Source of the DNA: a virus
Lineage: Duplodnaviria; Caudoviricetes
Virus record (IMG/VR): IMGVR_UViG_3300017766_003084
Location: 1-50,678 of that record
Direction: 5' to 3' (one strand)
Length of the DNA: 50,678 nucleotides
Position 1 is the first letter of the stretch, and every line of letters begins with the position of its first letter. A program made the position numbers and the translations under genes. This document shows positions 10,370 to 48,582 of the stretch, in pieces. Below the pieces are notes generated by a model. That model worked only from the letters and a program-made list of their open reading frames with translations, searched no databases and was not told the DNA's origin.

Positions 10370-10650
10370 GTTTTTCTCTCCGCTATGGTTTTCTTGAGGT
10401 GACAAGGCTTACACAAGGTTTGCAGGTTGCAGTCGTCGTCAGATCCTCCCTGCACAAGAGGAATGATGTGATCGACTTCGAGGTTTGACTCGGGGAATGG
10501 TTGACTGCAGTGATTACACAGGAATGAATCTCGTGAGAGTATTCGCATCCGGCGTTTGCTGCGTCCTTTACGCTTCGAGAGGAAGGCTTCACCCGCCACT
10601 CGTTCGCGGTCTCGGTTTGGGTCTGGGATTCGGACGGTTGGGATTTTCAT
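10366..10650 (-). CDS. HNH endonuclease (HK97 gp74-like)
   Basis: RD..LCNHC...EVDHIIPLVQGGSDDDCNLQTLCKPCHLKKT. Confidence 0.9.
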   Translation of the reverse strand: MKIPTVRIPDPNRDRERVAGEAFLSKRKGRSKRRMRILSRDSFLCNHCSQPFPESNLEVDHIIPLVQGGSDDDCNLQTLCKPCHLKKTIAERKT

Positions 10651-11932
10651 TGAGCACCTTCAGGAAAGCATCCTTGATGTAGGGGTTACAGTGGAGATGG
10701 GGAACTGACCGACCACGTGCCGGTCGATGTGTTTCTGAGTCAGTAGTAAGTATGCCGAGAGATTCCAAATCGTCAATACGACGACTGATGGTCTCCAGCG
10801 GAATGTTGCAAAGTGCGGCGATCGACTGACGGTTCAGCCCTTTGCTCTTTGCAATGGTACTGATGATGTTGAACTGTCTGCCGTAACTGGTGTCCTTACC
10901 GACTTTGATCAGCAGTGAGCGAATGCGAGGTGTGATCCTTGTTTCGCTCAGAACGTAACAGAGGCACAGTGCCAGACGAGACAACTGCTTTACGACTCGT
11001 GTACTGCCCTCCGGGGAAGCGTCGTACAGGAGTTCTGAAGGTGAACCATGTTCTCTGACTCGGGGTGCCTGAGCACGACTGCAGGCGATTACGTCACCGA
11101 TAGCCTGAATCAGAGACTTGTCGGACTGTGTGTATCCGGGACGCAGGATCTCTTCGTTCCTGATTCGAGTGTGCAGATGACTCAGCAGTCCTGCAGTGTA
11201 GGCACGTTGCTTAGGGAAACTGCGGGAGTCTCCTGCTTCGTTACCTTCCAGATTGGTACGGGCAGCAGACTGAAAGATCGAGTCGATAGCACGACTGTTA
11301 CGGTCTACTTCCACGTCTCGGGAGGTGTCCAGTCGGCAGTGAAGGAATCGCTCGCCGAGTGCAGACATGTTCAGCGAGTAGATTCGTTCCGTTATGCCAA
11401 TGACCATACCGAATGAGATGTTACTGAATGAAGCTGAGACACCGTTGCGGTACTCAGCGTTCAGTGAGCCGTCAAAGATGTCTCGCAGTTCCCCGTAGAC
11501 GTTTGCCAGTTGCTGCTGTGATGACTCCAAGAGAAGCGTGCCGTCCTTGATAACGACACACTTCCCCTGAAGCATGGGGATCAGGTGAGTGCCCTGACGT
11601 GACCCAGACACAAGCCCGGTGAACTTACTCAGACTTCGAGTGTGAATCTCGTCCGAAGCGATCAGTTCGCAGATTGTAGACTTCCCGCTCGATGGAGCAC
11701 CGACAAGGTAAATCCACAACGGATCACCTTCCAGAGCCACAGCGAGATGAGTTGCCATACAGATTGCAAGACAGTCCTCAAGTGATTGAGTAACAGACAT
11801 ATCCTGTCTGTAAATCTCGATCAGTTTGTGGAATGACGTACAAGCTTGCGGCTGAATGCTTACAACCTCGCTCAGATCAATTTCTGAGAGAGAAACTCTA
11901 ATCAGGTCAACGAACTGTGTCGGGGTAGTCAT
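10589..11932 (-). CDS. P-loop (AAA+-like) ATPase, putative replicative helicase, with C-terminal winged HTH
   Basis: Walker A GAPSSGKS, LGERF Arg-finger-like motif, C-terminal HTH (RQSIAALCNIPLETISRRIDDLESLG), directly downstream of the primase. Confidence 0.7.
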   Translation of the reverse strand: MTTPTQFVDLIRVSLSEIDLSEVVSIQPQACTSFHKLIEIYRQDMSVTQSLEDCLAICMATHLAVALEGDPLWIYLVGAPSSGKSTICELIASDEIHTRSLSKFTGLVSGSRQGTHLIPMLQGKCVVIKDGTLLLESSQQQLANVYGELRDIFDGSLNAEYRNGVSASFSNISFGMVIGITERIYSLNMSALGERFLHCRLDTSRDVEVDRNSRAIDSIFQSAARTNLEGNEAGDSRSFPKQRAYTAGLLSHLHTRIRNEEILRPGYTQSDKSLIQAIGDVIACSRAQAPRVREHGSPSELLYDASPEGSTRVVKQLSRLALCLCYVLSETRITPRIRSLLIKVGKDTSYGRQFNIISTIAKSKGLNRQSIAALCNIPLETISRRIDDLESLGILTTDSETHRPARGRSVPHLHCNPYIKDAFLKVLNENPNRPNPRPKPRPRTSGG

Positions 11933-11933: not shown

Positions 11934-12698
11934 TCAGGTTCTCATTGTGTTCCAGAGGTCGCGGATATCAAACTTGTCAGGAATGGTTTCTGAAGAAGGA
12001 ATAGATACCTTAGTCCAGTCGAGGTATGACAGCGACTCGACTGAGATACCAGAACCTTTCAGACGACGGGCGACTGACTGGACTCCTGACTGTCCCGCTT
12101 CATCGTTGTCGAACAGCAGGACGACTTTCTTCCCGTCCAGCAGGTGCAGGTACGACTGACTGAAACTGCTGCCGCAAGTCCCCAGCAGATCAATACCTGT
12201 AGACTTCAGAACCTGACGCATGATAAGATAATCGGCGTGTCCTTCTGCCACCCAGATTTCTGAAGAAGAAGATAATTGGCTCAATCCGAGGATGCTGCAG
12301 TTCCACGGCTTTGGACTGCTGTAAGCAATGTTGTTCTGCGGATTGTACTTGTGCAGAGCGATCAATTTGCTGTCAGCGTTGTAGACCGGGAACCAGTAGT
12401 ATCCTGAATCAAATCGTACTCCCTCACTCCTGAGTGTTTGGAATACGACACCCTTCTTTCTGTTCAGAAATTCACGAGCGGCTGGAGGTGAGAGTTCCGG
12501 AAGATCGTCGTAGAACTTACGCATCAAAGTCAAAGCGTTACCTGACTCTTTACACTTCCAGCACTGGTATACGTTACCTTCTGCCTTGCGGACAGACATC
12601 TTCTCAGAGGCACACCAAGGACAAGTGATGTTCCAGTCGTCGCCGTTGTTTTTGTAAGGCATTTCGAGGTGATCAAATAGTTTCATTTCCGCGGTCAT
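11934..12698 (-). CDS. DNA primase (Zn ribbon + TOPRIM)
   Basis: CPWC...CWKC, WVAEGHAD and LLFDNDEAG. Confidence 0.9.
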   Translation of the reverse strand: MTAEMKLFDHLEMPYKNNGDDWNITCPWCASEKMSVRKAEGNVYQCWKCKESGNALTLMRKFYDDLPELSPPAAREFLNRKKGVVFQTLRSEGVRFDSGYYWFPVYNADSKLIALHKYNPQNNIAYSSPKPWNCSILGLSQLSSSSEIWVAEGHADYLIMRQVLKSTGIDLLGTCGSSFSQSYLHLLDGKKVVLLFDNDEAGQSGVQSVARRLKGSGISVESLSYLDWTKVSIPSSETIPDKFDIRDLWNTMRT

Positions 12699-12919
12699 TG
12701 TCGTCTCCAGCTTTGTGCGTTTGGACCGCCTTGACTTGTCGGTTGCGTGTGAACTGCAGGCTTTGTTTTCCTGACAGTCAGCCACGCAATGAATTCTGAT
12801 AAAAGAAGTAGAAACACAATCAGAAGCAGTGAAGAGCCTAATCCGACTGTGAAACCGAACGTGAACTCTCGATGCTTAGTAATGATTTCAGTTATCATAG
12901 CCTCTTGCAAATCCCCCAT
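12695..12919 (-). CDS. Small membrane protein
   Basis: One hydrophobic helix. ATGA coupling to the primase. Start codon uncertain. Confidence 0.55.
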   Translation of the reverse strand: MGDLQEAMITEIITKHREFTFGFTVGLGSSLLLIVFLLLLSEFIAWLTVRKTKPAVHTQPTSQGGPNAQSWRRQ

Positions 12920-13923: not shown

Positions 13924-14105
13924 GGTTTCTGCTCCTCTATATCATCTGACCTGAAAAAACACACAAACATTCCAACGATAAATCCCAGCAGTAATACAGC
14001 AAAACTTACCAAGGCGTACAGCAACAGAAGTACGACCGCAGCTTCCAGCAAATAACTGATCAGAGCCACGAGGAACTGGAATACCGGGTAGAACATTTCG
14101 ATCAT
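13920..14105 (-). CDS. Small membrane protein
   Basis: Almost entirely hydrophobic. AGGAG RBS and ATGA coupling. Confidence 0.65.
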   Translation of the reverse strand: MIEMFYPVFQFLVALISYLLEAAVVLLLLYALVSFAVLLLGFIVGMFVCFFRSDDIEEQKP

Positions 14106-14554
14106 GGTTTCTGCTCCTTGTTCATCTGAATCTTCTTCGCTGTCCAACCTTCGAGCCACTTACGTTCATCTGGAGAACTGGTAGCATACTTACCGCCTGA
14201 CTTTCTAAACGGACAAGCTGAGTCAGGTATTCCGTTTTCTGCTGCTGTCATTCCTTGCTGGTAGATCTCCTGATAGCGTGCTTCTTTTCTACGGATGTTT
14301 TCATCACAGTTTCTCCCCATGAAGTAAAATCCGCAGATAGGGTAGAATATCAGTGATGCTAATATGTAGGCACCAAAGTATATCCAAGGTTTGCTGACTT
14401 CATCGTTTCTGCGGTTTCTCCAATGTTCAAGGTAAAACTCATGGTTCTTTTCGTCTCCATACAGTCCCCAACCACAAAACAACAGAAGGTGAATAAAAAA
14501 CAGTATGAAGAACCATCCGGCTATTGCTTCGTTGGTCTCGTAACTGAACATCAT
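14102..14554 (-). CDS. Membrane protein with C-terminal Rmf-like motif
   Basis: Two hydrophobic helices followed by YQQGMTAAENG...CPF...WLEGW. Confidence 0.7.
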   Translation of the reverse strand: MMFSYETNEAIAGWFFILFFIHLLLFCGWGLYGDEKNHEFYLEHWRNRRNDEVSKPWIYFGAYILASLIFYPICGFYFMGRNCDENIRRKEARYQEIYQQGMTAAENGIPDSACPFRKSGGKYATSSPDERKWLEGWTAKKIQMNKEQKP

Positions 14555-16548
14555 GGTCTCCTGATCTTGACTGACTTGTCCCATCGGGTGAAACACAATT
14601 CAGGATCGACCGGGGCTTTGACCCCATAGTCTGCTCCTGCTTTCTCCATCAGTTCTGTCAATGCCCAGACATGCTTCTTGGGGAAGCGTGCTGGCATTTC
14701 GAATACTAACTCATCGTGGCACTGCAATGCAATCCTTCCCTGAGGAAATTCTGAAAGGAAATAATCATGGCAGTATTTCATGGCACGCTTGACGATGACG
14801 CCCTCTGTGCCCTGAACGATGTAGTTCACACCGGCGTGTGCCTTGAACTCAAAGCTGCCACTCCACTGCGAAAACGTCTGTTGCAGGGCCAGAGGGTAGT
14901 CACCACGTGTTTTCACTATCCCTGTTTCTCGGATCTGATCTTTCGTCGCTTCAATGAAAGCGTGGGCATTCGGGAACAATTCGCAGACAGTATCCCAGAG
15001 ACCGGGGATTCCTGCCGTTGTCTCGATCTTCCTCGGACTGGCACCGAAGATAAACCCGAAGTTCACGTTCTTTGCGATACGACGCTGTCCCTTGCTGGGT
15101 GACTCATTGTCCGGCACGTTGAAGATCTTACGTGCAACGAAGTCGTGAGCGTCCCAGCCACGGTCAAACGCATCAATCATTTCCTGCTCTTCAGTGACTG
15201 CTGCAAAGATCCTCAACTGAAGCTGAGAGTAATCGCAGTCGAGCCACCAGTACCCGTCTGAAGGACCAAAGCAGGATCGCATTGACGGACTGGCTTTGAG
15301 CCACTTCGCAATGTCCGGGTGATCCTCTTCGTATGGATTGCTGGCTTTTGTCACCTGCTGCAGGTTCGGCTTCTCTGCACTGAATCGAGTCGTCTTTGTG
15401 CCGCAGATCTTGAATGACGGGTTGATGTGAGTCCCGACCATGCCTTCTCTGTAACCAACGAGGAACTGCAGTTTCTTTTGGTACTTCTTCAATGAGAGGT
15501 ACTGACCGAGGAACTGAAACTCTTTGCTGTCAGGTTCTGCTTCATCGTGGAGACGTAAGAGAGTTGCGGCATCGACTGAAGGCTTACCCTTCTTTGTCTC
15601 TTTGACTGCATCAACTCCCCATGTGTCGAAGAACAACACTCTCAGCTTGTCGTCTGTAATTACTTCAAGACCGCTGAGCCGCTTGCAGTTTTCTGAAAGG
15701 ATAGAGATGTAGTGTTCACAAGCGTCAATGGCTGCTGTGAGTTCCACAGTACGCACACGGACACCGAGCGTCTCCATCTTCCATACGACGTGCTCTACCT
15801 GCTTGTTGACGCTCAGGAGCGTAGCCAGATCGTCACCGTGACGTTCCTGCAGTTCAGCGAGGAACATAGCAGCAAGATCCCACGTGTTCCTGCAGTCGTC
15901 CTTCAGGTAGTTCTCGCAGACTCCACCGATGAGAGTATTCGGGAGTTTCGGTCGTAGTGCCTCTGGAACGAGTCGGTAAACTGCTGCTGGAAGCCAGTAG
16001 TCCATTCGAGTCCCGTCAAGGCTGGATGCACTGCTTCGCAGGGTGGGGTGCTGGTCATTTCGCTCGTCTGCGATGATCCAGTCGGGGTGATGCTTGCGGG
16101 CGTAGGCACGGCACTTGTTGACGATGGTGCAGAGTTTCTTTTCACTTTCGTATCCTCGTTCAAGATACTTGCGTGTCAGTTGGTCCAGCCCGAGAAAGTC
16201 ACTGCTGTTGTGCAGGTGAGCAAGCATCAGCGTGTCGAGAATGTAAGTCCAGAATGACTCTTCGCTGGGTGCTTCCCACGGCAGGATACCTGCTTCACAC
16301 AGGGCTTTCAAATCGAATCCGGCATTGTGCATCACGACCAGTTCTCGGTCGCTGCTGAGCATTGCATTCTCGATGCACGATACAATGGTAGGAGAGAAGT
16401 CTCGACGACGCTTACGTGTCAGCGGATCAATGCCAGCATGATCAGCGAGATATCTCTTTGCGTTGTCTCCGTTGTAGACTCCGATTGCAAACGTCGTGCA
16501 ACCGCTCATGAGGTGTAAACCAGTCGTTTCTGTATCGAGTCCCAGCAT
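14551..16548 (-). CDS. Family A DNA polymerase with 3'-5' exonuclease domain
   Basis: ExoI DTETTG, ExoII HNAGFD, TTRFSAEKPNLQQ, motif A DYSQLQLR, motif B RRIAKNVNFGFIFG, motif C CHDELVFE. Confidence 0.95.
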   Translation of the reverse strand: MLGLDTETTGLHLMSGCTTFAIGVYNGDNAKRYLADHAGIDPLTRKRRRDFSPTIVSCIENAMLSSDRELVVMHNAGFDLKALCEAGILPWEAPSEESFWTYILDTLMLAHLHNSSDFLGLDQLTRKYLERGYESEKKLCTIVNKCRAYARKHHPDWIIADERNDQHPTLRSSASSLDGTRMDYWLPAAVYRLVPEALRPKLPNTLIGGVCENYLKDDCRNTWDLAAMFLAELQERHGDDLATLLSVNKQVEHVVWKMETLGVRVRTVELTAAIDACEHYISILSENCKRLSGLEVITDDKLRVLFFDTWGVDAVKETKKGKPSVDAATLLRLHDEAEPDSKEFQFLGQYLSLKKYQKKLQFLVGYREGMVGTHINPSFKICGTKTTRFSAEKPNLQQVTKASNPYEEDHPDIAKWLKASPSMRSCFGPSDGYWWLDCDYSQLQLRIFAAVTEEQEMIDAFDRGWDAHDFVARKIFNVPDNESPSKGQRRIAKNVNFGFIFGASPRKIETTAGIPGLWDTVCELFPNAHAFIEATKDQIRETGIVKTRGDYPLALQQTFSQWSGSFEFKAHAGVNYIVQGTEGVIVKRAMKYCHDYFLSEFPQGRIALQCHDELVFEMPARFPKKHVWALTELMEKAGADYGVKAPVDPELCFTRWDKSVKIRRP

Positions 16549-16628: not shown

Positions 16629-17435
16629 TCAGAACGGTACGAGGTTCAGGTCCGTGTACTTCACACGAACACGCTTCCCGTCCAGTTCCAGCACGACTGT
16701 CCTTGCCGTGTCGTCAGCGTCCACCACAGTGTACGTGAGTTCTTTCTTGGTCTTTGGATTGGTCCAACCGACTTCGTAACCAACCCAAGCTGAAGGTTCG
16801 TAGTCCTCGTGCTGAGTCGGTGCATTCGTCGGAACTGCATCTTCGACTTCCTCGACTGCATCTTCAGATTCCGGGGTGTCGAGATCTTCGACTTCACTCT
16901 CTTCGTTCTCGACTTTAGTAGTCTCTTCGCTGTACTCCGACTCTTCCTCGGTCCATTCGCCCTGAGTCTTGTAGGCACTGCGAATGTTGAAGTACATACG
17001 ACCATTGCCGGACTTACCGGGCACTGCGGAGATAATGAACATGCTGTTCTTCTTCGCCAGCAAGTCCTTCTCGATGTCGCCGATTTCACGATCGGAAGTC
17101 GTGAGACCCATTCGCTGAATGTCCATCATCAGGCGGTCAAGACCCTGCTCAGCCGTTGCACGATCAGAGTCTGACAGACTGTGAATGATGCTGCACTGTG
17201 AGCCGTTGTGCTCTTCCTGTCCGTCGATTGAGCCGTCCACAACAAACCGCAGAATTGCGTAGGTCGCACCGTCCTTCACGATCATTCGCAGCGTGTCAAA
17301 CTTGCAGATCACGTCACCGGCGGGACCAGCGTAATCGCGGTTGCCGACAGCGTTGGTTGCAGCTTTGGCGTGCTTCTTGAGACGCTGATTCTTCTTGATC
17401 ACATCGGACAGAGAAACGTTGGTATTGTCAGCCAT
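16629..17435 (-). CDS. Putative single-stranded DNA-binding protein
   Basis: Lies between the AAA ATPase and the polymerase. Beta-rich N-terminal domain, long acidic linker, C-terminal PF. Confidence 0.55.
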   Translation of the reverse strand: MADNTNVSLSDVIKKNQRLKKHAKAATNAVGNRDYAGPAGDVICKFDTLRMIVKDGATYAILRFVVDGSIDGQEEHNGSQCSIIHSLSDSDRATAEQGLDRLMMDIQRMGLTTSDREIGDIEKDLLAKKNSMFIISAVPGKSGNGRMYFNIRSAYKTQGEWTEEESEYSEETTKVENEESEVEDLDTPESEDAVEEVEDAVPTNAPTQHEDYEPSAWVGYEVGWTNPKTKKELTYTVVDADDTARTVVLELDGKRVRVKYTDLNLVPF

Positions 17436-17466
17436 AGTTCACCTTCAAACTTTCTGAGAAAAGAAA

Positions 17467-18435
17467 TCACATGCCCAACACAGCACACAGGTTTTTGTAC
17501 GTCTCGGCGGCGTTTTCACCGCAGTCAATCTCACTCTCACCAGTCGGTGTTACCCACGACTTCGCAATGTAGTACGTGGACGGAGAGATACCGATAAATC
17601 GGCGGTCGCCCAGCGTTTTCTTCTTCTTCGTCTTTTCGTCGATAGTCACGTTGACCATCTGACCCATGAAGTAAACGCCGTGCAACTTCTTCTTCGTGAA
17701 CGACCAGATGCGACTGAACAACTGAGGTTCATACTGCTGGAAGTCAGGACCAACTGGATTGTCAACCTGTCGGTAGACGCTGTGAGCCAGCAGGATGACG
17801 TTGTAGCCCTTGCGGACAATCTTCAGGCAGAGACTCAGGAACTGAGCATCCCAATATGCTTCAGCAGCTTTGATGTAGCCGCCGTAGAATGAGAGGTAGC
17901 CGTCCTTCGCTTTGCTCGACATGTCACCCTTGTACAGCTTGCTGGCACAGTGCTGGAAGCACAGTTCCTGCAGTCCTGACACAGAGTCGATGATCAACGT
18001 CTTGCGACCGTGGTTCGCATTGAGGAAGCGGTCCATTGTCTTAAGGCACTTGTCCCAGCCGGGGTGTCCGTCGCCGTCAGGAATCGAGTCCTGTTCGTAG
18101 ACATCTTCCAGCGGGACGATTGTTACGTCACGTGGAATCAGGCCACGCTCTTTGTAGATTGCTGCACCGTGTTCACCACTGGTTGTAATGAACATCGGCT
18201 TTTCGAACTGAGAAGCCAACGTCGTCTTGCCCATACCGGCTTCTGAGTAGAACATCAGAAACCTGCCGAAGTGCTCTTCATCACCGACAAGATCGGCGAA
18301 TGGATCAGTCCCGGACTTCACGACTTTTGCAGCCATTGCTGGCCGCTCGTTGCCGATCTGCACAGAAGGCATACGACCTGATGGAACAGGTGCCTTCTTT
18401 GCTGGAGAACGTGGGGGTGGTTGTTTCGTGGTCAT
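17467..18435 (-). CDS. AAA_24 / Sak4-like ATPase
   Basis: Walker A SEAGMGKTT, Walker B LIIDSV, NVILLAH. Confidence 0.8.
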   Translation of the reverse strand: MTTKQPPPRSPAKKAPVPSGRMPSVQIGNERPAMAAKVVKSGTDPFADLVGDEEHFGRFLMFYSEAGMGKTTLASQFEKPMFITTSGEHGAAIYKERGLIPRDVTIVPLEDVYEQDSIPDGDGHPGWDKCLKTMDRFLNANHGRKTLIIDSVSGLQELCFQHCASKLYKGDMSSKAKDGYLSFYGGYIKAAEAYWDAQFLSLCLKIVRKGYNVILLAHSVYRQVDNPVGPDFQQYEPQLFSRIWSFTKKKLHGVYFMGQMVNVTIDEKTKKKKTLGDRRFIGISPSTYYIAKSWVTPTGESEIDCGENAAETYKNLCAVLGM

Positions 18436-19406
18436 TTGATACTCCGTGGTCTGAGGCCGTGCTTACAGCCTGTTAAACGATACTGCCTGAACTTTTCTGC
18501 TGTACCCTCCATAAATGGATTGTACAGCCCGTATGGTGTCATCCAGTGAACCTTGTTGACGACTCCTTTCTGAGAAGGAAGAGACATAAACTCGTACCAG
18601 TCGAGGAACGCTTCCAGCATCGGGTACAGACAGCGATGTCGGAATCTGTCTACCATTCCTCGATCTGGTATGATCCAGTACCGGAAGAAGTGATAGTCAC
18701 GATCACTTTCGATCGCTTCCGCAAGACGCCCGGCGAATTCGGTGTCGGATTCTTTGGCCTTCTTTCTTGGACCTCTGTATCCGAATCCATTAGGGCGGCG
18801 TATATGCTGGTACCAAATTTTGTCAGGCAAGCGGTCATGAGCAGCTTCGAAAAACAGCGTATACAGATTGACCTGCAGATTGTACTGAATTTCCTGAACG
18901 ATAGTCTGCTCATCCCATTCCCCCCGGCATTTGTTTTCCATCAGCATCGTGTCGGACTCGCCGTCGATGTAGCCGTGCATTTTAATGCTTCGACCTGACG
19001 GAAGTTCCACGACAATCTGATGGTGCTTTTCGGAATCGTTGAACCCGTACTTCTCAATGTCCTTGCCGTACATTCTGATCCACGTATCGACCTGATGTCC
19101 CGCCAGCGTAGCCCAGAATGCAATCTCACTGTACTCGCTGTGCTGAGTACACTGTTTCTTGAATTCGTTGTCGAGCAGTTTGACTGCTCCAGCACGCTGA
19201 CGGGTTTTGATATACCCTTCGATACCAGCCTGAACCAGAGATCCGTAGTTCGTGTTCTTGTTCCACGTCTCCACAGCTTCGAGTTTGTGAAGATAGTAGA
19301 CCTCGAATGCGACTCGATCAACGAGCCACATTTCCAGCCCGCTTACTGACAGCCCGTTTTTTAGCGGGTGCCACAGCGTTTGCAGTGATTGCAACTTTCC
19401 CTTCAT
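18432..19406 (-). CDS. PD-(D/E)XK exonuclease (RecB/Cas4-like)
   Basis: LSVS..., GYIDG......ENK, QVNLY. Confidence 0.8.
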   Translation of the reverse strand: MKGKLQSLQTLWHPLKNGLSVSGLEMWLVDRVAFEVYYLHKLEAVETWNKNTNYGSLVQAGIEGYIKTRQRAGAVKLLDNEFKKQCTQHSEYSEIAFWATLAGHQVDTWIRMYGKDIEKYGFNDSEKHHQIVVELPSGRSIKMHGYIDGESDTMLMENKCRGEWDEQTIVQEIQYNLQVNLYTLFFEAAHDRLPDKIWYQHIRRPNGFGYRGPRKKAKESDTEFAGRLAEAIESDRDYHFFRYWIIPDRGMVDRFRHRCLYPMLEAFLDWYEFMSLPSQKGVVNKVHWMTPYGLYNPFMEGTAEKFRQYRLTGCKHGLRPRSIK

Positions 19407-19719
19407 TGATCAGCCTTGCGAAAATTGGAAGGTCTTTTAGGTGCAGAATGACCATCGCATTCTGCCTGTCGTCGAACTCACCGATACAAAGAACCGCAGT
19501 TTTCTTTTCTGCGTCTGCCTTCTCTCGTTCTTCGTGTAACAGGTCTCGCAGCATCCTGTGATTGTTGCGAGTGTACTTGCACGAGATAAACAGGTTTGGG
19601 TGTAATGAATCTGAACGTGTCATCTTACTGTTACCTCCACTCAGAGCATTTCTGGTAGAAGTGAAGATACCTGCGATGAACCGCTCAAACTGTTTCCACG
19701 GCTTGTCCGACATGTTCAT
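19318..19719 (-). CDS. Putative Holliday junction resolvase-like PD-(D/E)XK protein
   Basis: WKQFER.IA...SD......ISCKY pattern, with the usual E of ExK replaced by S. Confidence 0.55.
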   Translation of the reverse strand: MNMSDKPWKQFERFIAGIFTSTRNALSGGNSKMTRSDSLHPNLFISCKYTRNNHRMLRDLLHEEREKADAEKKTAVLCIGEFDDRQNAMVILHLKDLPIFARLINEGKVAITANAVAPAKKRAVSKRAGNVAR

Positions 19720-19882
19720 TGTCCTTATTCAGTTCGCTCCTGAGTACCTTAAATGACCTTGGAGCGTCAATGCTAACTTGGATTCGCGACCTCTTGTCTT
19801 TGAGTCCAAAATGAAGTGTGATTGTTCCCTCGCGGGTTGTGATTGTGATTGACTCAGAATCTCTTCGGCTAAGACACAACAT
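19685..19882 (-). CDS. csrA: CsrA/RsmA-like RNA-binding translational regulator
   Basis: MLCLSRRDSESITI...IQVSIDAPRSFKVLRSEL matches CsrA (MLILTRR.GE.I.I...VRIGI.AP..V.V.R.E). Confidence 0.85.
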   Translation of the reverse strand: MLCLSRRDSESITITTREGTITLHFGLKDKRSRIQVSIDAPRSFKVLRSELNKDNEHVGQAVETV

Positions 19883-19909
19883 GGAAAGTTCCCTCTGTAA
19901 TTTCTGAGA

Positions 19910-19966
19910 AAGAAAAGGCAGTGGCCAGCACGATGCCCACCATAACATCAGATACTGACCACTGCC
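19910..19966 (-). terminator. Terminator or attenuator upstream of the csrA-like gene
   Basis: GGCAGUGGUCAGUA...UGCUGGCCACUGCC hairpin followed by UUUUCUUU on the - strand. Confidence 0.65.
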
Positions 19967-19974
19967 TAGAATCA

Positions 19975-21204
19975 TCAAGTCCGGGCTGGAACCGCCTTAC
20001 GCTTTGCGGGAGCACGCTTCACTGCTGGCTTCACCGGCTCTGGTTCTTCCGGAGTATCCAGATCTTCAACGACTGCTTGCACAGGTTCTTCGGTGAAGTC
20101 GTCCAGTTCTTCAGCAGGCTGTTCCGTCTGTGTTTTGCGTTCAGCAGCAGCGGCTTTCTTCGCTGCAGCAATCTCGAAGCAGGACGTGTGCCAGCCATCA
20201 AACAGGATCGGGAAGTCGCGGTAGTTCTCCTGCTCTTTCTTCGACAGCTTGATGTCAGTCACCTTCAGGCCACTCTCGCCGTTCAGGCAAGCACGTACTG
20301 CCTTGACGAACGGGCCAACCCACTCAAGGTCTCGGTCCTTACTGCCCGGCTGTGCCATCAGGTTGTTCCAGTAGCCAGTCAGGGCGTGAGCGACTGAACC
20401 CCTCTCGTAACCGTTGCCAGTGGAAAGCTGAGACAACAGCATCTCGACTTTGTCACAAGCGTCACTGTCGATCATCAGACCGTTATCGGTGTCCTCAAAA
20501 ACGCAAGCGGCGTAGAGAAGTGCAGCAGTGTACGGCAGGGACATCTTCAGTCCGCCGTGTCCGCCGTCACCGTCGTTTGCGTCCAGAACCATCGTGACGA
20601 ACTGACAGAGGTTGTAGTGCTTGTCCTTCAGGAAGTCGAGCATCTCGCTGATCTGGAACTTCGGAGCGTCACTGACGACTGCTCCACCTTCCATCAACCA
20701 TACAAGACGTGCTGCACCAGCCAGCGTCTTTGTCCACGTCTTACGACGGCTGGCCGTGTTGTTCCAGTCGGCACTGATCACGCTGTCAATCCACGGATCA
20801 CGGAACAGAACGTCGCCGTGAGTACGGGACTTGCCAGTGTCAACGGTGTCGGCAGTTTCAGGCTCAACACCGCGAACAATGACAACGTCAATCTCGGTCT
20901 GTGCTTCCGGCCACTCTTCGCCCTTGTCCAATGCTTCGCAAGCAAGAATGAGGGCCTTGAGACGATGCTGTCCGCTGACCAGATGACCCAGATTGTCAAA
21001 GATCAAAGGTTCGCCGTTGACTCGCCACTTGCCACGCAACTTCTCGTTGGCGTACAGCTTTGCGACGCCCATCGACATCGGGCGATTGCCCTTGTTGCAC
21101 TCTTTCAGAACGTAGTCAGCAAACTCGCGGCCAATGCGAACTACCGTCGAGGTGACAGGACTGTTGACCTTCTTTGTACGCTTCATCGCAACTTCAAACG
21201 ACAT
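19975..21204 (-). CDS. ParB/Srx-like N-terminal domain protein
   Basis: NRP...YA....G.W..NGEPLIFD..G.LVSGQHRLKA...VDTGKSRT..D. Low-complexity C-terminal tail. Confidence 0.75.
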   Translation of the reverse strand: MSFEVAMKRTKKVNSPVTSTVVRIGREFADYVLKECNKGNRPMSMGVAKLYANEKLRGKWRVNGEPLIFDNLGHLVSGQHRLKALILACEALDKGEEWPEAQTEIDVVIVRGVEPETADTVDTGKSRTHGDVLFRDPWIDSVISADWNNTASRRKTWTKTLAGAARLVWLMEGGAVVSDAPKFQISEMLDFLKDKHYNLCQFVTMVLDANDGDGGHGGLKMSLPYTAALLYAACVFEDTDNGLMIDSDACDKVEMLLSQLSTGNGYERGSVAHALTGYWNNLMAQPGSKDRDLEWVGPFVKAVRACLNGESGLKVTDIKLSKKEQENYRDFPILFDGWHTSCFEIAAAKKAAAAERKTQTEQPAEELDDFTEEPVQAVVEDLDTPEEPEPVKPAVKRAPAKRKAVPART

Positions 21205-21307: not shown

Positions 21308-22087
21308 TCAGAATTTTTCCGCATCGTAGTTTTTGTTGATTCTGCGGGCGGTCAGCATCTGCCTCAGAGTCTCCAATCGCTCAACTGATTCTTCTGGTTT
21401 TTCACCCGAGAGTAACCGAGTAGACCTGCCGCACCAGTTGACTCCTGCTGGTCCCAAGTGCAGCACTTCGAACGGGGGACGGATTTTGTTTGCCTCACTC
21501 CAGTTCTGCTGAAAGAAAGAATCTGCACCGCCAGCATGTCTCCAGTTGACTTCGTGCCAAGGCGGTTCGGGCAGGTGCCTGTCAGTGCCGTGAAATATCT
21601 GTGTGTAACCAGCAAACTCCTGTTGTTGTGGGTGTAACGGGAAAGTTTTCCAGTAAGGTTCGTGAGGCACACGATCAGGAATGTTAATGCACATTCTACG
21701 CTTTGGTGTGTACAAACAGCCGGGAACCATTTTGAACTTGTTGTTCTGAGGCACGAAACCTTCTGGAACAAGAAATTCCCAATCAATTTGTTTAGGCCAA
21801 AGAACGTCTGCGTCCATCAAGCACAGCCAACCGTGTCTGCCAAAGTAATCGAGTCCGAGTTCCAGTGCTGCCCACTTGTTGAACTTTGCACCGTTGGCAG
21901 TGAAAACGTCAGTGCGAAACATTGGCACATCGTACTTGTCAGCAATGTACTTCGTTGCTCTGTCACGCATGTTTGTGACAATGAGTATCTCTTTGAAGTG
22001 ATGCCTGTTGTAATCCAGTGTTACGTTGAGTAAGTCTGAATAGTCAACACACACGATAATAGCACGCAAGGGGGTGGACATGGTCAT
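21308..22087 (-). CDS. GT-A fold glycosyltransferase (GT2-like)
   Basis: AIIVCVDYSDLL, FNKWAALELGL, DxD motif LMDADV, GYTQIFH, GGADSFF. Confidence 0.8.
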   Translation of the reverse strand: MTMSTPLRAIIVCVDYSDLLNVTLDYNRHHFKEILIVTNMRDRATKYIADKYDVPMFRTDVFTANGAKFNKWAALELGLDYFGRHGWLCLMDADVLWPKQIDWEFLVPEGFVPQNNKFKMVPGCLYTPKRRMCINIPDRVPHEPYWKTFPLHPQQQEFAGYTQIFHGTDRHLPEPPWHEVNWRHAGGADSFFQQNWSEANKIRPPFEVLHLGPAGVNWCGRSTRLLSGEKPEESVERLETLRQMLTARRINKNYDAEKF

Positions 22088-23007
22088 TTCTCCAAGTAGT
22101 CGATGACACGACGTTTTTCTGAAGGAACAGTAATGATTGGAAGAATCCCGTGCTTGGCTTTACCATGCAAAGATTCATACATACCGGATACTTCGGTGAT
22201 GTGCTCTCCTTGTGCAAGTCTGTGCTGTGCTCGAAGCGGCACTAGGCAATTGTTGCAGTGTTGTTCAACTTGATGCTTGAACGTTCGCATCGGCTCTTTC
22301 CACCAGCCTTCATGAACGTTCTCGGGAGTAATCGGAATGCCAGTGTCAGGATAGTTAGGATCGTCCTGAAGCAGCACAGCCTGACCACCAGCGACTTCAC
22401 AGAAGAACCCCCGAAGTTCTCCACGGAACTGACAGATCATTGCGGACCAATGCCTGTTGATGTCACAGTTTGTGATGAGGTTATACCGCTCTGTTTCATC
22501 AGGTACTGCTGCGGTAAGGTCGCCGTGAACAGCAGAGTGTCGGCTGTCTTTGTCAGCACCAAAAGGCATTGATTCTGGCCAGTCTCGTTTGAATTCATCG
22601 TAGGCTTTCCTGTTGAGGTGAACATTCAGATTGCTCATTCGAGGGTTAAAGGTTTTCCGCATCACAGAGCCTTCGCCCAACGGATTGTTGCACCAGATCC
22701 CACACTTGTCTTGCGGGAAGTAGGATCGAAGGATGCTGCAGATCCTGTTGAACTCGGGGTGCATTGCAGGGTTGCCACCGAATATGCCGATTAGTCCGAA
22801 GTAGTCATGAACTGACTGACAGGCTAACTCGAAGTTCTGTGGTGTCATGTAGTGACCCCTGCCAGCAAACTGACTGCCTTGTGTGCAGTTGCTACAGGCA
22901 AGGTCACAGGAGCGTGTGATGTTTATTTGCATCACACCTTCCATCCACTTTCCCGGTCTCCGTTGAGACGGGGAAACCATCGCGTCAACGTAGTGATCAA
23001 TACTCAT
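22084..23007 (-). CDS. Radical SAM protein
   Basis: CxxxCxxC (CDLACSNC), FGGNP, additional C-terminal Cys (CDI, FCEVA, CNNC). Confidence 0.88.
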   Translation of the reverse strand: MSIDHYVDAMVSPSQRRPGKWMEGVMQINITRSCDLACSNCTQGSQFAGRGHYMTPQNFELACQSVHDYFGLIGIFGGNPAMHPEFNRICSILRSYFPQDKCGIWCNNPLGEGSVMRKTFNPRMSNLNVHLNRKAYDEFKRDWPESMPFGADKDSRHSAVHGDLTAAVPDETERYNLITNCDINRHWSAMICQFRGELRGFFCEVAGGQAVLLQDDPNYPDTGIPITPENVHEGWWKEPMRTFKHQVEQHCNNCLVPLRAQHRLAQGEHITEVSGMYESLHGKAKHGILPIITVPSEKRRVIDYLEK

Positions 23008-37185: not shown

Positions 37186-38980
37186 CGCTGTTCTCCGTGT
37201 ATTTTCTGTCAGCCAGCCAACTGTCAATCAACGATTGACAATTGAAGTTCTCAACCACGTCCTGCCACGGGAGTAATTGTTCTCGTAGCATGTTCGCAAA
37301 CTTGCCGTCTGCTGCATAGAACTCTGCGACCGCAGCGTCGTAATCATCTTTTCGTGTCTGCTTCTTTTGATCCAAGACACGGGCTTCATACTGCTTCAGT
37401 CCGTTAATAACGTTCTGATACGCTGTCTGAATCTGATTATTGGCTTTACGCAGTCGTTTGTCAATGTTGTCCTTCGACGGTGAATTATCCATGTCTTTCT
37501 GCGTAGTCGCTCCTGGTGCCTCAGGAGTCTTTACAGGCTTTACCATTCCGCTGTTTGTCTGGCGTTGCTGTTCCTTCTGCAGGTCCAGCATCTCAAGATT
37601 TGAATTAGCAGTCTCGTTTGCAATGCGAGCCTGATCCTCAAGCAGCAAAGAGTGCTCGACAGTCATCAGGTTCACAGGCACGTAACGAGGGTCTGCAGCA
37701 GCGTCCCTCGGGTCGATGAAGAACCCGAGCAACTGACGAGTCTCAGCACGGTTCAGTACGCCGATCTCCATGAGGTTACGCAGAGATCCTGTGAATTTGT
37801 CAATGACGTTTCGGTACAGGTAGATACGCTCGAAGTCGAATCTGAACAACCTGCGTGATGTCAGTGGGAGTAATTCGTTCCTGAACTGAATACACAGATG
37901 ATCCAGAAATGGTCCGATGCCTGTCTGTACAAACAAAGCCATCGCCTGAGCCAGATCCACGTCTCCAGCTTTCGTACCCATGTAGGAGTGCAGCAGCGAG
38001 GGAGGAATGTTGAAGCCGCGAGCCACATCCTCTACGCTGAATGCACGAGTCTCGATGAACTGAAGGTGCTGGAACGGAATACCCATGTGAACAGGTTTCA
38101 GTCCCTGTTCAAGGATGCGTGTCTTGAAGATTGCTTCAAGTGGTGCATTGGGATCTTCCAGAAAGTTACTCTCGATCCGCTTCAGAACTTCTGGAGCAAG
38201 ACGATTATCAGTCGTCAGGAACATCTGTGTGGCGATACCCTTCGTGTAGAAGGATCGTCCAAATTCTTCAGATGCTTCGTACAACTGCACACTTCGACTA
38301 CTGTTAATTACGAATCCCTGACCACGGAAGTGCTCAGCGTCGTACAGTTTGTTCGAGAAGTGACAGATGTACTCCTTCGGAACAATAATCGCTTGGGTGT
38401 TGGTATCGCGGGAAGATTCTCCTGTGTTGATGACGTAGATGATCTCACCGGCTGTTGCGGTGCGACCATCAAACAACTTCTCGCTTCCGTTAGCACGTCG
38501 GATGTTGGTAACGGGAATGCGTGAGGGATGGATGTAACTGAGACGTGATGTTCGGCCTTGCAGGTCGAACTCTCTGAGAAAGTAACAGTTGCCGTCCATC
38601 AGAACGTCATACACGATCATGCTGAAGGCACGATCAGAGTCGAGTTCTGGATTGAAGTAATGACTGAACAGGCGGCTGGCAGGATGGGCAGTCGTGCTGA
38701 CAATGCGTGTCGGAGTATCGGTGTCAGGGTCAACACCATACATACGACGGGGAAGCCCCATCAGCAAACCGGAGTACGTTTCCAGAGCACACTTCACTGC
38801 TGTCAGTTTGAGAGCGGATTTCGAAGCGTCAGTGTAGTAGGTCTCATGGTTCATTATGCCGATCAGATTCTGCCACGTCATCGTAGCAGAGTTCTGTACA
38901 AGGCTGTGGGCGTAGTCGATCAGCGTGCGAATAGCACCGTGTTGATTACGCTGTTCAGGCTTACGAAACCATGAGATCAT
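37163..38980 (-). CDS. Portal protein (HK97 family) with C-terminal extension
   Basis: VKCALE.YS..L..LP, DGNCY, ILEQGLK, QFIETR, VARGFNIPP, NRAETR. Confidence 0.92.
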   Translation of the reverse strand: MISWFRKPEQRNQHGAIRTLIDYAHSLVQNSATMTWQNLIGIMNHETYYTDASKSALKLTAVKCALETYSGLLMGLPRRMYGVDPDTDTPTRIVSTTAHPASRLFSHYFNPELDSDRAFSMIVYDVLMDGNCYFLREFDLQGRTSRLSYIHPSRIPVTNIRRANGSEKLFDGRTATAGEIIYVINTGESSRDTNTQAIIVPKEYICHFSNKLYDAEHFRGQGFVINSSRSVQLYEASEEFGRSFYTKGIATQMFLTTDNRLAPEVLKRIESNFLEDPNAPLEAIFKTRILEQGLKPVHMGIPFQHLQFIETRAFSVEDVARGFNIPPSLLHSYMGTKAGDVDLAQAMALFVQTGIGPFLDHLCIQFRNELLPLTSRRLFRFDFERIYLYRNVIDKFTGSLRNLMEIGVLNRAETRQLLGFFIDPRDAAADPRYVPVNLMTVEHSLLLEDQARIANETANSNLEMLDLQKEQQRQTNSGMVKPVKTPEAPGATTQKDMDNSPSKDNIDKRLRKANNQIQTAYQNVINGLKQYEARVLDQKKQTRKDDYDAAVAEFYAADGKFANMLREQLLPWQDVVENFNCQSLIDSWLADRKYTENSDGTGSES

Positions 38981-41940
38981 TTCAACCCCCGTATATCGCT
39001 GATCGTCTGAACCTCGGGATATAGCCAACCACCAACTGCCATCAAGGACGCTACTACACCGTCGATCTTCTGCGTGCTCTTTGACTTGTCTGGCCGGTAC
39101 TTCCCGTCTCTGTCAGACACGATAACAACGTTTCCAGCTTCCCATTCCAACACTGTGTTTCCACCATGAAACAACTGACGGTCAGTTATCATTGCCTCAA
39201 GTTTTCGACACGGTTCATTCATGCCAGCAAAGTTCTGCGGGTATGCTCGTGCAGGATACCCGAATTCCTTCAGTCTGACATAGACAATTCGTGCCGCAAA
39301 GCGGTCAAAGCAAACTTCTCGCAATCCACGGAAGTGAGACAGAATGCCCGGATACTGGTCGTTACCGAGCATGGCTGTCAGGATCGCTTCGTCGTCTGTT
39401 GTGTCCAATGGACTTGTGGAATTCAGGAGACCCGATTCCCACCAGTTTCCGTAGGGGATGTTTTGTTCTTTCTGCCTTCTGTACACTGATGCCGCAGGAC
39501 ACCAGCACCAGTGCAGTATAACGCCACGCTGAGGAAAGAAAAGAGCCAGTGAAGCCAAGTCCTGCACAATCGTGTTGTCGAACCCAGCGTAGCATTCTTC
39601 GTCTCTCAGTTCTTCACACTGTTTGATAAACCACGACCAGTATTGCTGTTGCCCATTCAGGTACACATCGACAGATGAAGATTCGTAGAATCGGTTATCC
39701 AGAGCAATGTTGTTCCAAGTCGCATGTTCTGACATCCACTGTTTGATCTCGGGCACTGAAAGTAATTCGACATTTTCCGGATTGCCCCTTGCCCAGATGT
39801 ACGAAGGAATCCATGCTGTTTCAGTCTTTGTTTGAATGTTCAGATGCAACCTGAGAAACCTGTTCAGTTCCTGTGGGTTGTTCTGAACAGAAGAAACCAT
39901 ATCTTCGAAGTATTCCTCCGTGATAGACTTACGGAAGTTTGGGTTTGCTTTCGACCAAACCACAGGACTCCTGAAGTCGTCTGTTGGGAGTGCTTCGTAG
40001 ATTATCGGCAGAAAAGAAGGCTGAACCTGACGGTTATCCCGGATTGCTCGGGCCTTCTCCAGCAACTGATTACAGACCGAAGGGCGGTCATAGTCTGCAG
40101 TCGTCGTGTAAACTGTGAGAGGTTGACGACGAGATGCAGTACCTGTTTTCATTACATCAATCAGTTCTCCACTTGTGTGTGCATGAACTTCGTCCACGTA
40201 AACGAAGTTTGGTGACAGCCCGTGTTTTGTGTCAGCAACAGACGACAGAACTTTGAACACTGATCCGTCATTGTGTTCGAACGACCTTGTTGACTTGTAG
40301 ATACGTTTATCTTTGAGTCGAGACAGCAGATTGGGGTTCTGCTGAATCATGAACTCTGTGTGTCTGAAATTGACAGATGCTTGCTCTACGTCAGCAGCAC
40401 AGCAGAAGTTTTGAGATCGCTGTTCTTTGTCGTAGAAAAACATCAGCAGTGTAATCACCGCACCAAAGGCTGTCGTGTTGTGTGTCGGAAGGTACTGCTC
40501 CCCAAAAAGGTATGTGCCAGAATCAGAACTTACCTGAATGCAAGTCATTGGTCTTGGTTTAGATGGAACAATACTAACAATATGATTTGATTTTGACCTT
40601 CCCCTGTGTGGTTTCATCCTATTGAGTTTTCTGAGCAGCCTAAACACTTCATGCTCTTTTCTGCCCGCAGAAAACTGAATATCGTAGTACGTTCCTTCTG
40701 TTCTGTTCTGAGATTGTTTTTTCTTTTCAGTAATGGACGCCTTGAGACCGAGAGAGTAGCACAGACGAACAATTCCATCTGCAAGAGTTTTGTTCTTTTG
40801 GATTATGTTCAAACAAGTACCTGTTTTGTTTATTGTACCGTCTGTGTCCATCAACCCCTGCAAAAGATGCAGTCTTTGTTTTCTTGATGCCGTGAAATAA
40901 ACTTCTGGAATGTGTTTGTTGTTCTTTAATTTCAACGACGACAATACAGAGCCTGACAACTGAGACAGACTTACGCGAGGACATTTATCAGCGTAGCGAC
41001 TGACTTTGTACTTTGACCAAAAATGAAGGTCTTGATCTCCAACAGAAATGTACGGTCCAGCAGAACTTCCATCGCCAAGCCACGCTCCAAGTATGTAAGG
41101 ATTTACAGGCAGATCTGCTTCATCACATTCAATACCAGAGTGCATTTTCACATTGAATGTCTTACCGTAGGAGCAGTCAACTCCAGCGTCAAACATTTCC
41201 TGTGTTGTCCAAACTGACTCATACGTGCATTTGCCGACAGAGTTCGTTACTGTCTTTACTCCGGATTTCCTACTCACCTTCTTTGTTTTACTGTCAACGC
41301 TTGGGTGTTGTTTTTTTGAAAACACATGCCATTGGTGATCTGCACCAGCCTCAACTGAATGACCGCTTGAAAACGTTACAGTGTAAGTTTTCTCAGGGAC
41401 TCTCGGCTCGGCGACAAACACGACTTGACATTGCTTTCCGTCTTTGTCGAATACTGTGTCTCCTACAGCCAGTTCACCGATTGGAGTAAATCCTTTCGGA
41501 GTTGGAATCGGAGTTGTCATGCACAACTCTTTACCATTCTTTCGAGGGACGTATATAAAGCATTCTTTATATCGACGGTAATTGCTCCCCACCTTCTTCC
41601 AGCAGAACAAGTTGGCGTATACAGCCGACTGCCAGACTTCAGGTATGAAACTTTTACCTGTCAGTTCTCCTTCAGGGTAGCACGCTTCGTTGGTAACGAA
41701 TGAGATGATCCTGTACCACTCGTCTACGTCAAAGTAATACCCCTCCGCTTGTGCGAAGGGGTCGTAGTCAGGAACTGTTCTCAGGAACTTGACGATGTTT
41801 CGATGAGTCCACTTCCAACCTATCAATCGACCATGCTCGTAGATTGTGTCAGGTACTGGAACTTTTCTCAGCGATCTTTTCTCGTTTGTCCTGAAGAATG
41901 AGTTGAGTGATGTATCTTCTTGTTCTTCTGTCGTGGTCAT
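38977..41940 (-). CDS. terL: Terminase large subunit, interrupted by an intein
   Basis: YVPRKNGK / TT Walker A split by the intein, Walker B YVDEVH, TTTA motif, ANP, KIDGVVASLMA. Confidence 0.95.
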   Translation of the reverse strand: MTTTEEQEDTSLNSFFRTNEKRSLRKVPVPDTIYEHGRLIGWKWTHRNIVKFLRTVPDYDPFAQAEGYYFDVDEWYRIISFVTNEACYPEGELTGKSFIPEVWQSAVYANLFCWKKVGSNYRRYKECFIYVPRKNGKELCMTTPIPTPKGFTPIGELAVGDTVFDKDGKQCQVVFVAEPRVPEKTYTVTFSSGHSVEAGADHQWHVFSKKQHPSVDSKTKKVSRKSGVKTVTNSVGKCTYESVWTTQEMFDAGVDCSYGKTFNVKMHSGIECDEADLPVNPYILGAWLGDGSSAGPYISVGDQDLHFWSKYKVSRYADKCPRVSLSQLSGSVLSSLKLKNNKHIPEVYFTASRKQRLHLLQGLMDTDGTINKTGTCLNIIQKNKTLADGIVRLCYSLGLKASITEKKKQSQNRTEGTYYDIQFSAGRKEHEVFRLLRKLNRMKPHRGRSKSNHIVSIVPSKPRPMTCIQVSSDSGTYLFGEQYLPTHNTTAFGAVITLLMFFYDKEQRSQNFCCAADVEQASVNFRHTEFMIQQNPNLLSRLKDKRIYKSTRSFEHNDGSVFKVLSSVADTKHGLSPNFVYVDEVHAHTSGELIDVMKTGTASRRQPLTVYTTTADYDRPSVCNQLLEKARAIRDNRQVQPSFLPIIYEALPTDDFRSPVVWSKANPNFRKSITEEYFEDMVSSVQNNPQELNRFLRLHLNIQTKTETAWIPSYIWARGNPENVELLSVPEIKQWMSEHATWNNIALDNRFYESSSVDVYLNGQQQYWSWFIKQCEELRDEECYAGFDNTIVQDLASLALFFPQRGVILHWCWCPAASVYRRQKEQNIPYGNWWESGLLNSTSPLDTTDDEAILTAMLGNDQYPGILSHFRGLREVCFDRFAARIVYVRLKEFGYPARAYPQNFAGMNEPCRKLEAMITDRQLFHGGNTVLEWEAGNVVIVSDRDGKYRPDKSKSTQKIDGVVASLMAVGGWLYPEVQTISDIRGLK
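40477..41529 (-). mobile_element. Intein (351 aa, class 3 signature) with LAGLIDADG homing endonuclease
   Basis: Block A ELCMTTPIPTPKG...GD.V, block B DHQW, endonuclease motifs YILGAWLGDG and LLQGLMDTDG, block F MTCIQV, block G PTHN followed by extein Thr. Confidence 0.92.
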
Positions 41941-43571: not shown

Positions 43572-44248
43572 TGGTCTGCACCTCCTCGAACATTCACTGG
43601 CCGATAGCCGCCGCCTGATGATTTCGCAACCCCTGTGTCCATCATTTCTGCAACTATATGCACAGTATTGACATTACTGGCTGCAGTAACGGTTATAACT
43701 GGCCAACTTGAAACAGAACTTCCCGTGTCGTGTAATGCCAAATAACCAGTGCTTGATCCTGCATAAACTGCCCTGTTCGTCATACCGCTCGGGGCTGCAC
43801 TTCCGACCCCTGTGTTTTCGTAGATATAAATTGCACCGAATACGACCGCTGCAGCGTTCTGTAACTTTGTCGGTGTGTTTAGAGACGAATACTGAGTAAT
43901 GTTTGGATAAGTAACAGATGTGGTGTTGCGTGTATTGCTTCGATTACAACCGCCCAGTGCACGATAGTTTGTGGAGTCTCTATAAACCGCAGCCATAATA
44001 AGGTGCGAGCCAGTCCATGTTCCGCTGGTTTCACTTGCGCTTGTTGCAATTTTCCAACCAACAAATAGACATCTTGCAGGCGATACCCCATCAGCACTGG
44101 CGATTGGGACACTCCAGCCAGACGGAATGGTCGGAGCGAATCCGGTATTATTTCCGGTTAAAATCAGCAGCAAATCGCCCGCTTGATGCGTCGGTATGGT
44201 AACGCTTGTAGCTTGTGCTGAATTAGCTGCCTGAAACGCAATAGTCAT
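43568..44248 (-). CDS. Putative virion-associated beta-sandwich protein
   Basis: VTIP..QAGDLLLI...PSGW pattern, S/T/A-rich, ATGA coupling. Confidence 0.6.
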   Translation of the reverse strand: MTIAFQAANSAQATSVTIPTHQAGDLLLILTGNNTGFAPTIPSGWSVPIASADGVSPARCLFVGWKIATSASETSGTWTGSHLIMAAVYRDSTNYRALGGCNRSNTRNTTSVTYPNITQYSSLNTPTKLQNAAAVVFGAIYIYENTGVGSAAPSGMTNRAVYAGSSTGYLALHDTGSSVSSWPVITVTAASNVNTVHIVAEMMDTGVAKSSGGGYRPVNVRGGADQ

Positions 44249-45530: not shown

Positions 45531-45579
45531 CAGCCTTGTCCCGTGCTGATTGTCGAATTGCGGGTAAACCCCAATTGTT

Positions 45580-47559: not shown

Positions 47560-47560
47560 G

Positions 47561-48526: not shown

Positions 48527-48554
48527 TTGATCGGTACGATAATCTTGATAGAAT
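48527..48554 (+). promoter_or_regulatory. Putative promoter of the right-end + strand cassette
   Basis: TTGATC-N16-TAGAAT upstream of an AAGGAG RBS. Confidence 0.5.
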
Positions 48555-48582
48555 TTCCGTACCTCGCGAACGAAAGGAGCGA

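Follow-up and report, generated by a model that had tools for sequence, protein, structure and literature searches.

A Gln-Phe-Glu triad replaces the canonical gate pair in a clade of family A DNA polymerases from uncultured tailed phages

We analyzed a 50,678-nucleotide stretch of DNA from a tailed phage (Caudoviricetes; IMG/VR record IMGVR_UViG_3300017766_003084), referred to here as the window, and characterized the family A DNA polymerase encoded on its minus strand at positions 14551-16548. The record, which the window spans in full, is 97% complete and encodes an HK97-type capsid protein, a ClpP-like protease, a portal protein, TerL, and TerS, all assigned with Pfam. The translated open reading frame (ORF) of the polymerase, P0001, is 665 amino acids (aa) long and comprises an N-terminal 3'-5' exonuclease domain and a polymerase domain. 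P0001 matched Pfam DNA_pol_A (PF00476) with 188 bits against a cut-off of 34.3 (E 3.4e-55, aa 279-649) and DNA_pol_A_exo1 (PF01612) with 25.5 bits against 23.6 (E 1.4e-05, aa 2-138). The Pfam scan found no 5'-3' exonuclease (5' nuclease) domain. PHROGs and NCBIfam also assigned the protein as a DNA polymerase, and it scored far below the equivalog cut-offs for bacterial Pol I (PRK05755 and TIGR00593; 207 bits against 720 and 163 against 600). Three residues in the conserved polymerase motifs of P0001 depart from the family A norm, and these residues are the subject of our analysis.

The remainder of the active site is that of an ordinary proofreading polymerase. AlphaFold2, run on a 96-sequence alignment (A2), gave a model with a pLDDT of 95 and a pTM of 0.94, and the top Foldseek matches of this model were the Klenow fragment (1d8y), Pol I of Thermus phage G20c, and Bst Pol I. 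P0001 shares the fold of Pol I (Foldseek E ~5e-25, TM 0.7-0.8; best PDB sequence match 5.5e-30), the catalytic Asp/Asp/Glu residues, the O-helix Arg/Lys/Phe residues (Arg489, Lys493, and Phe497, the last corresponding to Klenow F762), the motif 6 Gln, and three exonuclease motifs. It differs from Pol I in its low sequence identity (~20%), its lack of a 5' nuclease domain, and the three replacements described below. Motif C reads His611-Asp612-Glu613 (14710-14718), with its catalytic residues intact. A codon check placed the exonuclease motifs between 15892 and 16536 on the minus strand: ExoI, DTE (16528-16536); ExoII, NAGFDL (16309-16326); and ExoIII, YLKDDC (15892-15909). The DxE, NxxxFD, and YxxxD patterns that define proofreading PolA enzymes are thus all present. 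In the 96-sequence alignment D439, K493, G502, H611, D612, and the exonuclease residues D79 and D218 are invariant, and the exonuclease residues D5, E7, and Y214 are nearly so. We ruled out an inactive pseudo-polymerase because the catalytic and exonuclease residues are all intact and conserved.

An initial annotation, made from the sequence alone, had singled out positions 15043-15234 for substitutions in motifs A and B, with a further change downstream and intact catalytic Asp residues in motifs A and C. Motifs B and A bound this interval exactly, and every residue named was confirmed by HMMER alignment and codon check. Motif A is DYSQLQLR (15211-15234, minus strand), with catalytic Asp439 intact and Gln444 (CAG, 15217-15219) at the position of the steric gate. 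Motif B, on the O-helix, is KNVNFGFIFG (15043-15072, minus strand), with canonical Lys493 and Phe497 but Phe501 (TTC, 15046-15048) in place of the usual Tyr. Motif 6, which the model places on a long helix of the palm (aa 570-599), is QGTEGV (14797-14814, minus strand), with Glu582 encoded by GAG at 14803-14805. The alignment with the Klenow fragment set DYSQLQLR on DYSQIELR, KNVNFGFIFG on KAINFGLIYG, and QGTEGVIVKRAM on QGTAADIIKRAM, which pairs Q444 with E710, F501 with Y766, and E582 with A852. The pairing was computed; 710, 766, and 852 are what we take to be the Klenow residue numbers, and we use them below for all homologs. All three residues recur in genes of 99% and 98% identity on contigs other than the window (L001 and L002) and persist in homologs with as little as ~30% identity; this recurrence excludes chance or sequencing error.

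The Glu710-Tyr766 pair is the textbook example of ribonucleotide exclusion and of a check on base-pair geometry in family A polymerases. Hohlbein et al. (2013, PMC3715850) term the hydrogen bond between these residues invariant in A-family polymerases and describe both as setting sugar selection and fidelity in the Klenow fragment. The same source reports that E710Q is a mutator with a low incorporation rate and a Kd2 for the correct deoxynucleoside triphosphate (dNTP) of 230 µM, compared to 0.83 µM for the wild type, and that Y766F is wild-type-like. Meli et al. (2016, PMC4882331) call both residues universally conserved and describe an interaction between them and the long helix of the palm. 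A Glu gate hydrogen-bonded to the motif B Tyr, quoted as a conserved family A feature, is absent from P0001. The enzyme remains a family A polymerase because this pair is a feature named in the literature and not a criterion of the family profile. A full-text search on the motif A, B, and 6 strings found no description of a Gln gate in print, and one broad search by residue name returned only unrelated literature for residue 852.

We surveyed the three positions across relatives of P0001. A word-indexed search returned 312 relatives, of which the best 120 (98-36% identity) were taken. Searching the 50%-identity representatives exhaustively yielded 376 matches below 1e-30, and 150 of these were used. 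P0001, the 120 word-search relatives, and 137 further representatives were aligned with MAFFT to give a 258-protein alignment. A second set came from a profile search with 16 boundary sequences as seeds, and 28 of the 120 matches listed there were aligned (18 phage-like proteins and 10 bacterial Pol I). Writing states as gate/766/852, the 258 proteins comprised 227 Q/F/E, 1 Q/F/gap, 16 E/Y/A, 9 E/F/A, 1 E/Y/V, and 2 H/Y/E, along with 2 fragments to which no state could be assigned. The 28 further proteins included two Q/F/E sequences and 26 with a Glu gate, which carried Ala (25) or Cys (1) at position 852.

The strictest partner of the gate residue is position 852, not Tyr766. Across both alignments, Phe766 and Glu852 were found together in 229/229 Gln-gate proteins with position 852 resolved (227/227 for Glu852 in the larger alignment), while Glu852 was found in 0/52 Glu-gate proteins, which had Ala (50), Val (1), or Cys (1) instead. 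Both His-gate homologs kept Glu852 next to a Tyr at 766. No Gln gate with Ala852 and no Glu gate with Glu852 occurred among the 283 resolved sequences, which diverge to ~25-30% identity. Column 582 of the 258-row alignment was the sole column that fully split Gln-gate from Glu-gate proteins (score 0.996; next best 0.81). Phe766 accompanies every Gln gate but also occurs with a Glu gate, as in the E/F/A sister group, two bacterial Pol I sequences, and the Microbacterium phage Milani. These results show that the Gln-Phe-Glu triad is a clade signature and not a one-off, and they support the earlier proposal that the pocket has co-adapted. The suggestion that the Glu of QGTEG compensates for the other changes matches the strongest covariation signal in the data, and compensation is how we would explain that signal.

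The Glu-gate proteins with Phe766 come from different sources. Milani DNA polymerase I, from a cultured phage (L240, OR159658.1, 36707-36988), reads DLAQAELR and NFSLIFG, a Glu gate with Phe at 766. Two full-length bacterial Pol I proteins from ~4-Mb contigs (P0343 and P0350) have the motif B sequence NYGVLFG, in which the aromatic residues have changed places (Tyr at 762, Phe at 766); their gate is a normal Glu, and they carry QGSAAD. Strict invariance of Tyr766 thus does not hold for cellular Pol I either. The Glu-gate sisters of P0001 (P0185, P0192, and P0252; E/F/A or E/Y/A) share its length, domain layout, and neighboring replication genes at 25-35% identity, and differ in having Glu at the gate and Ala at 852. 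Judged by their residues, the E/F/A forms look like an intermediate state in which Tyr has already become Phe.

We built trees with the three trait columns removed in order to separate coupling from shared ancestry. We used FastTree on 174 rows (6 fragments dropped), IQ-TREE with LG+G4 on 100 picked rows, and, as the more careful analysis, IQ-TREE with the site-heterogeneous LG+C20 posterior mean site frequency (PMSF) model on 52 picked rows. Several Glu-gate groups fell inside the Gln-gate group in the FastTree and LG+G4 trees. Under LG+C20 PMSF, the E/Y/A pair P0252/P0255 was nested in a 100/96 clade with 7 Q/F/E rows, and both H/Y/E rows were nested in a 95/85 clade with 8 Q/F/E rows. A single change to Q/F/E sufficed in 0/200 bootstrap trees, and supported branches forced at least three changes. 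The trees thus support at least three changes of gate state, one of them a nested pair that reverted at all three sites. For P0252, segment identity ruled out recombination as an explanation of the reversal at three sites: with trait sites excluded, its palm/fingers segment is nearest to Q/F/E sequences (55%) and not to E/Y/A sequences (44%), so the reversal occurred by point changes. The same check on P0255 was ambiguous (47% vs 45% and 44%).

Our preferred reading, to which we assign a probability of about 0.6, is that P0001 is an active proofreading replicative polymerase of an uncultured tailed phage in which a rewired gate pair is compensated by Glu582. In place of the canonical pair of motif A Glu and O-helix Tyr, the gate is an isosteric, uncharged Gln and the Tyr is a Phe, with loss of the hydroxyl. 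A new carboxylate, Glu582, is present on the long motif 6 helix of the palm, at a site that is Ala or Gly in other PolA enzymes. In what is otherwise an ordinary proofreading replicase, the carboxylate that anchors the gate may thus have been relocated from motif A to motif 6. Glu582 might accept a hydrogen bond from the Gln444 amide or restore the local negative charge, so that the static palm, and no longer the mobile Tyr of the fingers, would hold the gate side chain. Such an arrangement could offset an E710Q-type change, which alone cripples the Klenow fragment. In the P0001 model, Gln444 lies at the N-terminal end of a helix (443-452) that follows the motif A strand (433-440), and the long helix 570-599 carries Glu582 three residues past the DNA-contacting Gln579. 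We take these two helices to be the paired palm helices of the family A fold. The odds of a direct contact between Gln444 and Glu582 are about even. The H/Y/E variants fit a 710 side chain positioned between 766 and 852, as Tyr and Glu flank the His gate.

The E/F/A sister group suggests an order for these changes. Tyr-to-Phe, which is near neutral in the Klenow fragment, may have come first. Glu-to-Gln could then have removed a charge that lacked its hydroxyl partner, and Ala852-to-Glu would have added a carboxylate from the neighboring palm helix. Each of the three changes takes a single nucleotide step. The E710Q and Y766F mutants described by Hohlbein et al. (PMC3715850) carry the same two replacements, made singly in the laboratory; the natural double change differs in that it always comes with a third, Ala852 to Glu, which was outside those experiments.

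Several points weigh against this reading, and some of them favor the alternative that the triad is a neutral, historically linked clade marker with a single origin, preserved by inertia, in which positions 444 and 582 are uncoupled. Most Q/F/E sequences belong to one large group, and supported independent events are few. Only 3 independent pairs lie on supported branches (2 changing in the same direction and 1 without a difference at 852), so the sign test (p 0.5) cannot reach significance. An approximately unbiased (AU) test against a single Gln/His-gate clade was marginal (ΔlnL 82, p 0.044), and the tested group was defined post hoc. A nested E/Y/A clade of 16-23 rows seen with LG+G4 and FastTree was not upheld under LG+C20 PMSF, where it shifted to an unresolved backbone that collapsed to a polytomy. 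Two further points concern mechanism: in the Klenow geometry as we presume it, residue 852 might lie one turn away from the insertion site, and unchanged substrate selectivity of clade members is an assumption. Against the neutral marker stand the absence of exceptions and of Q/A or E/E intermediates over such divergence, the supported nested pair that reverted at three sites without segment replacement, the retention of Glu852 by His-gate variants, and, from the source cited above (PMC3715850), the deleterious effect of E710Q alone. We consider the neutral marker very unlikely. The evidence for functional coupling between the gate and position 852 is good but not statistically conclusive.

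A different interpretation had been placed on the substitutions by the initial annotation, which proposed altered sugar or base selectivity or adaptation to modified templates and pointed to nucleotide-metabolism genes and a glycosyltransferase (GT)/radical SAM cluster in the genome. Under this interpretation, the rewired pocket would change substrate choice toward ribonucleoside triphosphates, 2'-modified or base-modified dNTPs, or modified templates. Its appeal lies in the roles of E710 and Y766 in sugar selection and fidelity noted above and in the gene content of the window, which includes ThyX, a MazG-like protein, a DUF3310/nucleotide-kinase-like protein, and a weak radical SAM match. 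We compared ~10 kb around the polymerase in IMG/VR loci, a span that could miss more distant genes. The 82 loci comprised 60 Q/F/E, 18 Glu-gate without E852, and 4 partial loci, and the first two groups were compared.

The same replication module surrounds Gln-gate and Glu-gate polymerases. All of its genes in the window are on the minus strand, and partners were assigned from Pfam and PHROG matches. Upstream in window numbering are a 447-aa P-loop/winged helix-turn-helix protein (10589-11932; 51/60 Gln-gate and 15/18 Glu-gate loci) and a Toprim/zinc-ribbon primase (11934-12785; 53/60 and 13/18). Downstream are a Sak4-like ATPase (17467-18435; 36/60 and 9/18), a PD-(D/E)XK-like protein (18432-19406; 49/60 and 12/18), and two other conserved replication/recombination partners, an acidic 268-aa protein (within 16629-21204) and a phrog_5931 protein (19975-21204). 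The accessory genes had a narrower distribution: ThyX was found in 7/60 Gln-gate loci, the DUF3310 protein in 9/60, the radical SAM protein in 5/60, and the GT-like neighbor in 7/60, each in 0/18 Glu-gate loci, and all four were confined to close relatives of the window phage. ThyX passed the NCBIfam equivalog cut-off for FAD-dependent thymidylate synthase (114 vs 87.9 bits) and is thus an ordinary enzyme of that kind. The GT matches were far under the Pfam cut-offs (E 0.04-0.14) and the radical SAM match fell just below its own. Within ~10 kb, nothing links the Gln-gate state to nucleotide-modification genes, and the step from a co-adapted pocket to altered selectivity or modified DNA is unsupported.

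The residues themselves also argue against altered selectivity. The steric part of the gate is kept because Gln is isosteric with Glu, Arg489, Lys493, and Phe497 are canonical, and E/F variants occur in ordinary polymerases such as those of Milani and the two bacteria. One further point in favor is that, according to Czernecki et al. (2021, 2023; PMC8599892, PMC10201439), Phe at the motif B Tyr (B4) is the only substitution common to both clades of the aminoadenine-specific polymerase DpoZ; the same authors doubt that Tyr-to-Phe explains base choice. On balance, we regard a change in substrate choice as unlikely though worth weighing. Most likely, ordinary dNTPs and ordinary DNA are still the substrate and template of P0001.

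The Phe shared with DpoZ raises the narrower possibility that P0001 is itself of the DpoZ type, from a phage whose DNA contains 2-aminoadenine. Like the DpoZ enzymes of the phiVC8-like and Wayne-like clusters, P0001 is a phage family A polymerase with Phe at B4, and the window has a MazG-like gene. P0001 failed both NCBIfam DpoZ models (NF038380 phage_DpoZ_1, 100.9 bits against 500; NF038381 DpoZ_2, 63.4 against 350). A six-frame search of the whole 97%-complete record gave no match to the adenylosuccinate-synthetase-like PurZ (PF00709), while the control was positive in 14/14 genomes. In addition, the available parts of the DpoZ papers (PMC8599892, PMC10201439) report no change at the gate (their position A2) in any of 19 clusters. 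A DpoZ identity for P0001 is extremely improbable.

If Gln444 is held from the palm, as we propose, the clade could also have a different sugar or fidelity checkpoint, for example tolerance of ribo- or 2'-modified nucleotides or a pocket pre-set independently of the fingers. We hold this extension to be distinctly unlikely. If it were true, these natural enzymes would be a place for polymerase engineering to start from and would indicate that the phages use nucleotides in an unusual way.

P0001 belongs to a large and diverse PolA clade known only from metagenomes. The exact DYSQLQLRIF motif occurs in 45 IMG/VR contigs, and the canonical DYSQIELR..A pattern has at least 119 matches in the same database. 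The 174-row FastTree set covers at least 123 clusters at 50% identity. Among 50,697 phage records, none was more than 28% identical over the whole of P0001 or more than ~45% over the motif A-B segment, and the three better-ranked cultured/INPHARED matches inspected (H41, H42, and H54) all had a Glu gate. The question of whether the Gln/Phe pair is common in ordinary phage PolA thus has a divided answer: the pair is universal within one large uncultured clade and absent from those three matches. The Gln-gate clade is common within one uncultured phage group and absent from the cultured phages and isolate genomes examined. In 185,579 species genomes, the DYSQLQLRIF pattern was found in 2 metagenome-assembled genome (MAG) contigs. 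The sole Gln-gate relative from the genome collection, L238 (JBIKII010000381.1), is encoded on a 13-kb MAG contig binned as Caulobacter sp.; it is 55% identical to P0001, with DYSQLQLR and QGAEG. Because mis-binning of phage contigs is frequent, this contig points to a host weakly at best, too weakly for one to be named.

Other features of the window and of the polymerase relatives were recorded along the way. An ORF just downstream of the polymerase (14102-14596, minus strand) overlaps its stop by 46 bases, and the C-terminal part of this ORF weakly resembles ribosome modulation factor, with a score below the cut-off (E 6.4e-04, 20.2 vs 27.9 bits). The segment 21308-28276 (minus strand) holds seven ORFs without a confident family, a run found only in close relatives. 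One of these ORFs (22084-23007) matches the N-terminal core of radical SAM proteins with 26.7 bits against a Pfam cut-off of 29.5, with arsenosugar ArsS type as its best NCBIfam match (6.5e-07), and two others have very weak glycosyltransferase matches. TerL (987 aa, 38977-41940, minus strand) contains a Hom_end/LAGLIDADG match (3e-09, aa 344-432) between the pieces of its ATPase, which looks like an intein. TerS (50048-50584) lies ~8 kb from TerL, separated by mostly unassigned ORFs (41955-50584, minus strand) that include a minor-tail-protein-like ORF (43568-44248); packaging modules are not usually ordered in this way. About 10 polymerase relatives are ~300 aa longer than P0001, among them P0091, P0112, P0156, P0184, and P0202 (920-1014 aa). 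The DNA_pol_A match was split in two in 4 of 5 long relatives scanned, with the break near profile position 213 in the motif B region. The insertions are probably inteins, and none of the five matched an intein family at E 0.001.

We conclude that the Gln-Phe-Glu triad is a natural variant of a well-known enzyme family that has not been described in print, as far as our searches went. The tempting inference that such substitutions signal modified DNA is corrected by this analysis, as the genomic context here does not back it. A large natural clade that replaces both residues of the canonical pair, and always adds Glu852, represents an alternative working solution. The clade also highlights residue 852, which has no part in the fidelity literature as we found it. 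The triad offers a clean system for mutant cycles and possibly new scaffolds for polymerase engineering.

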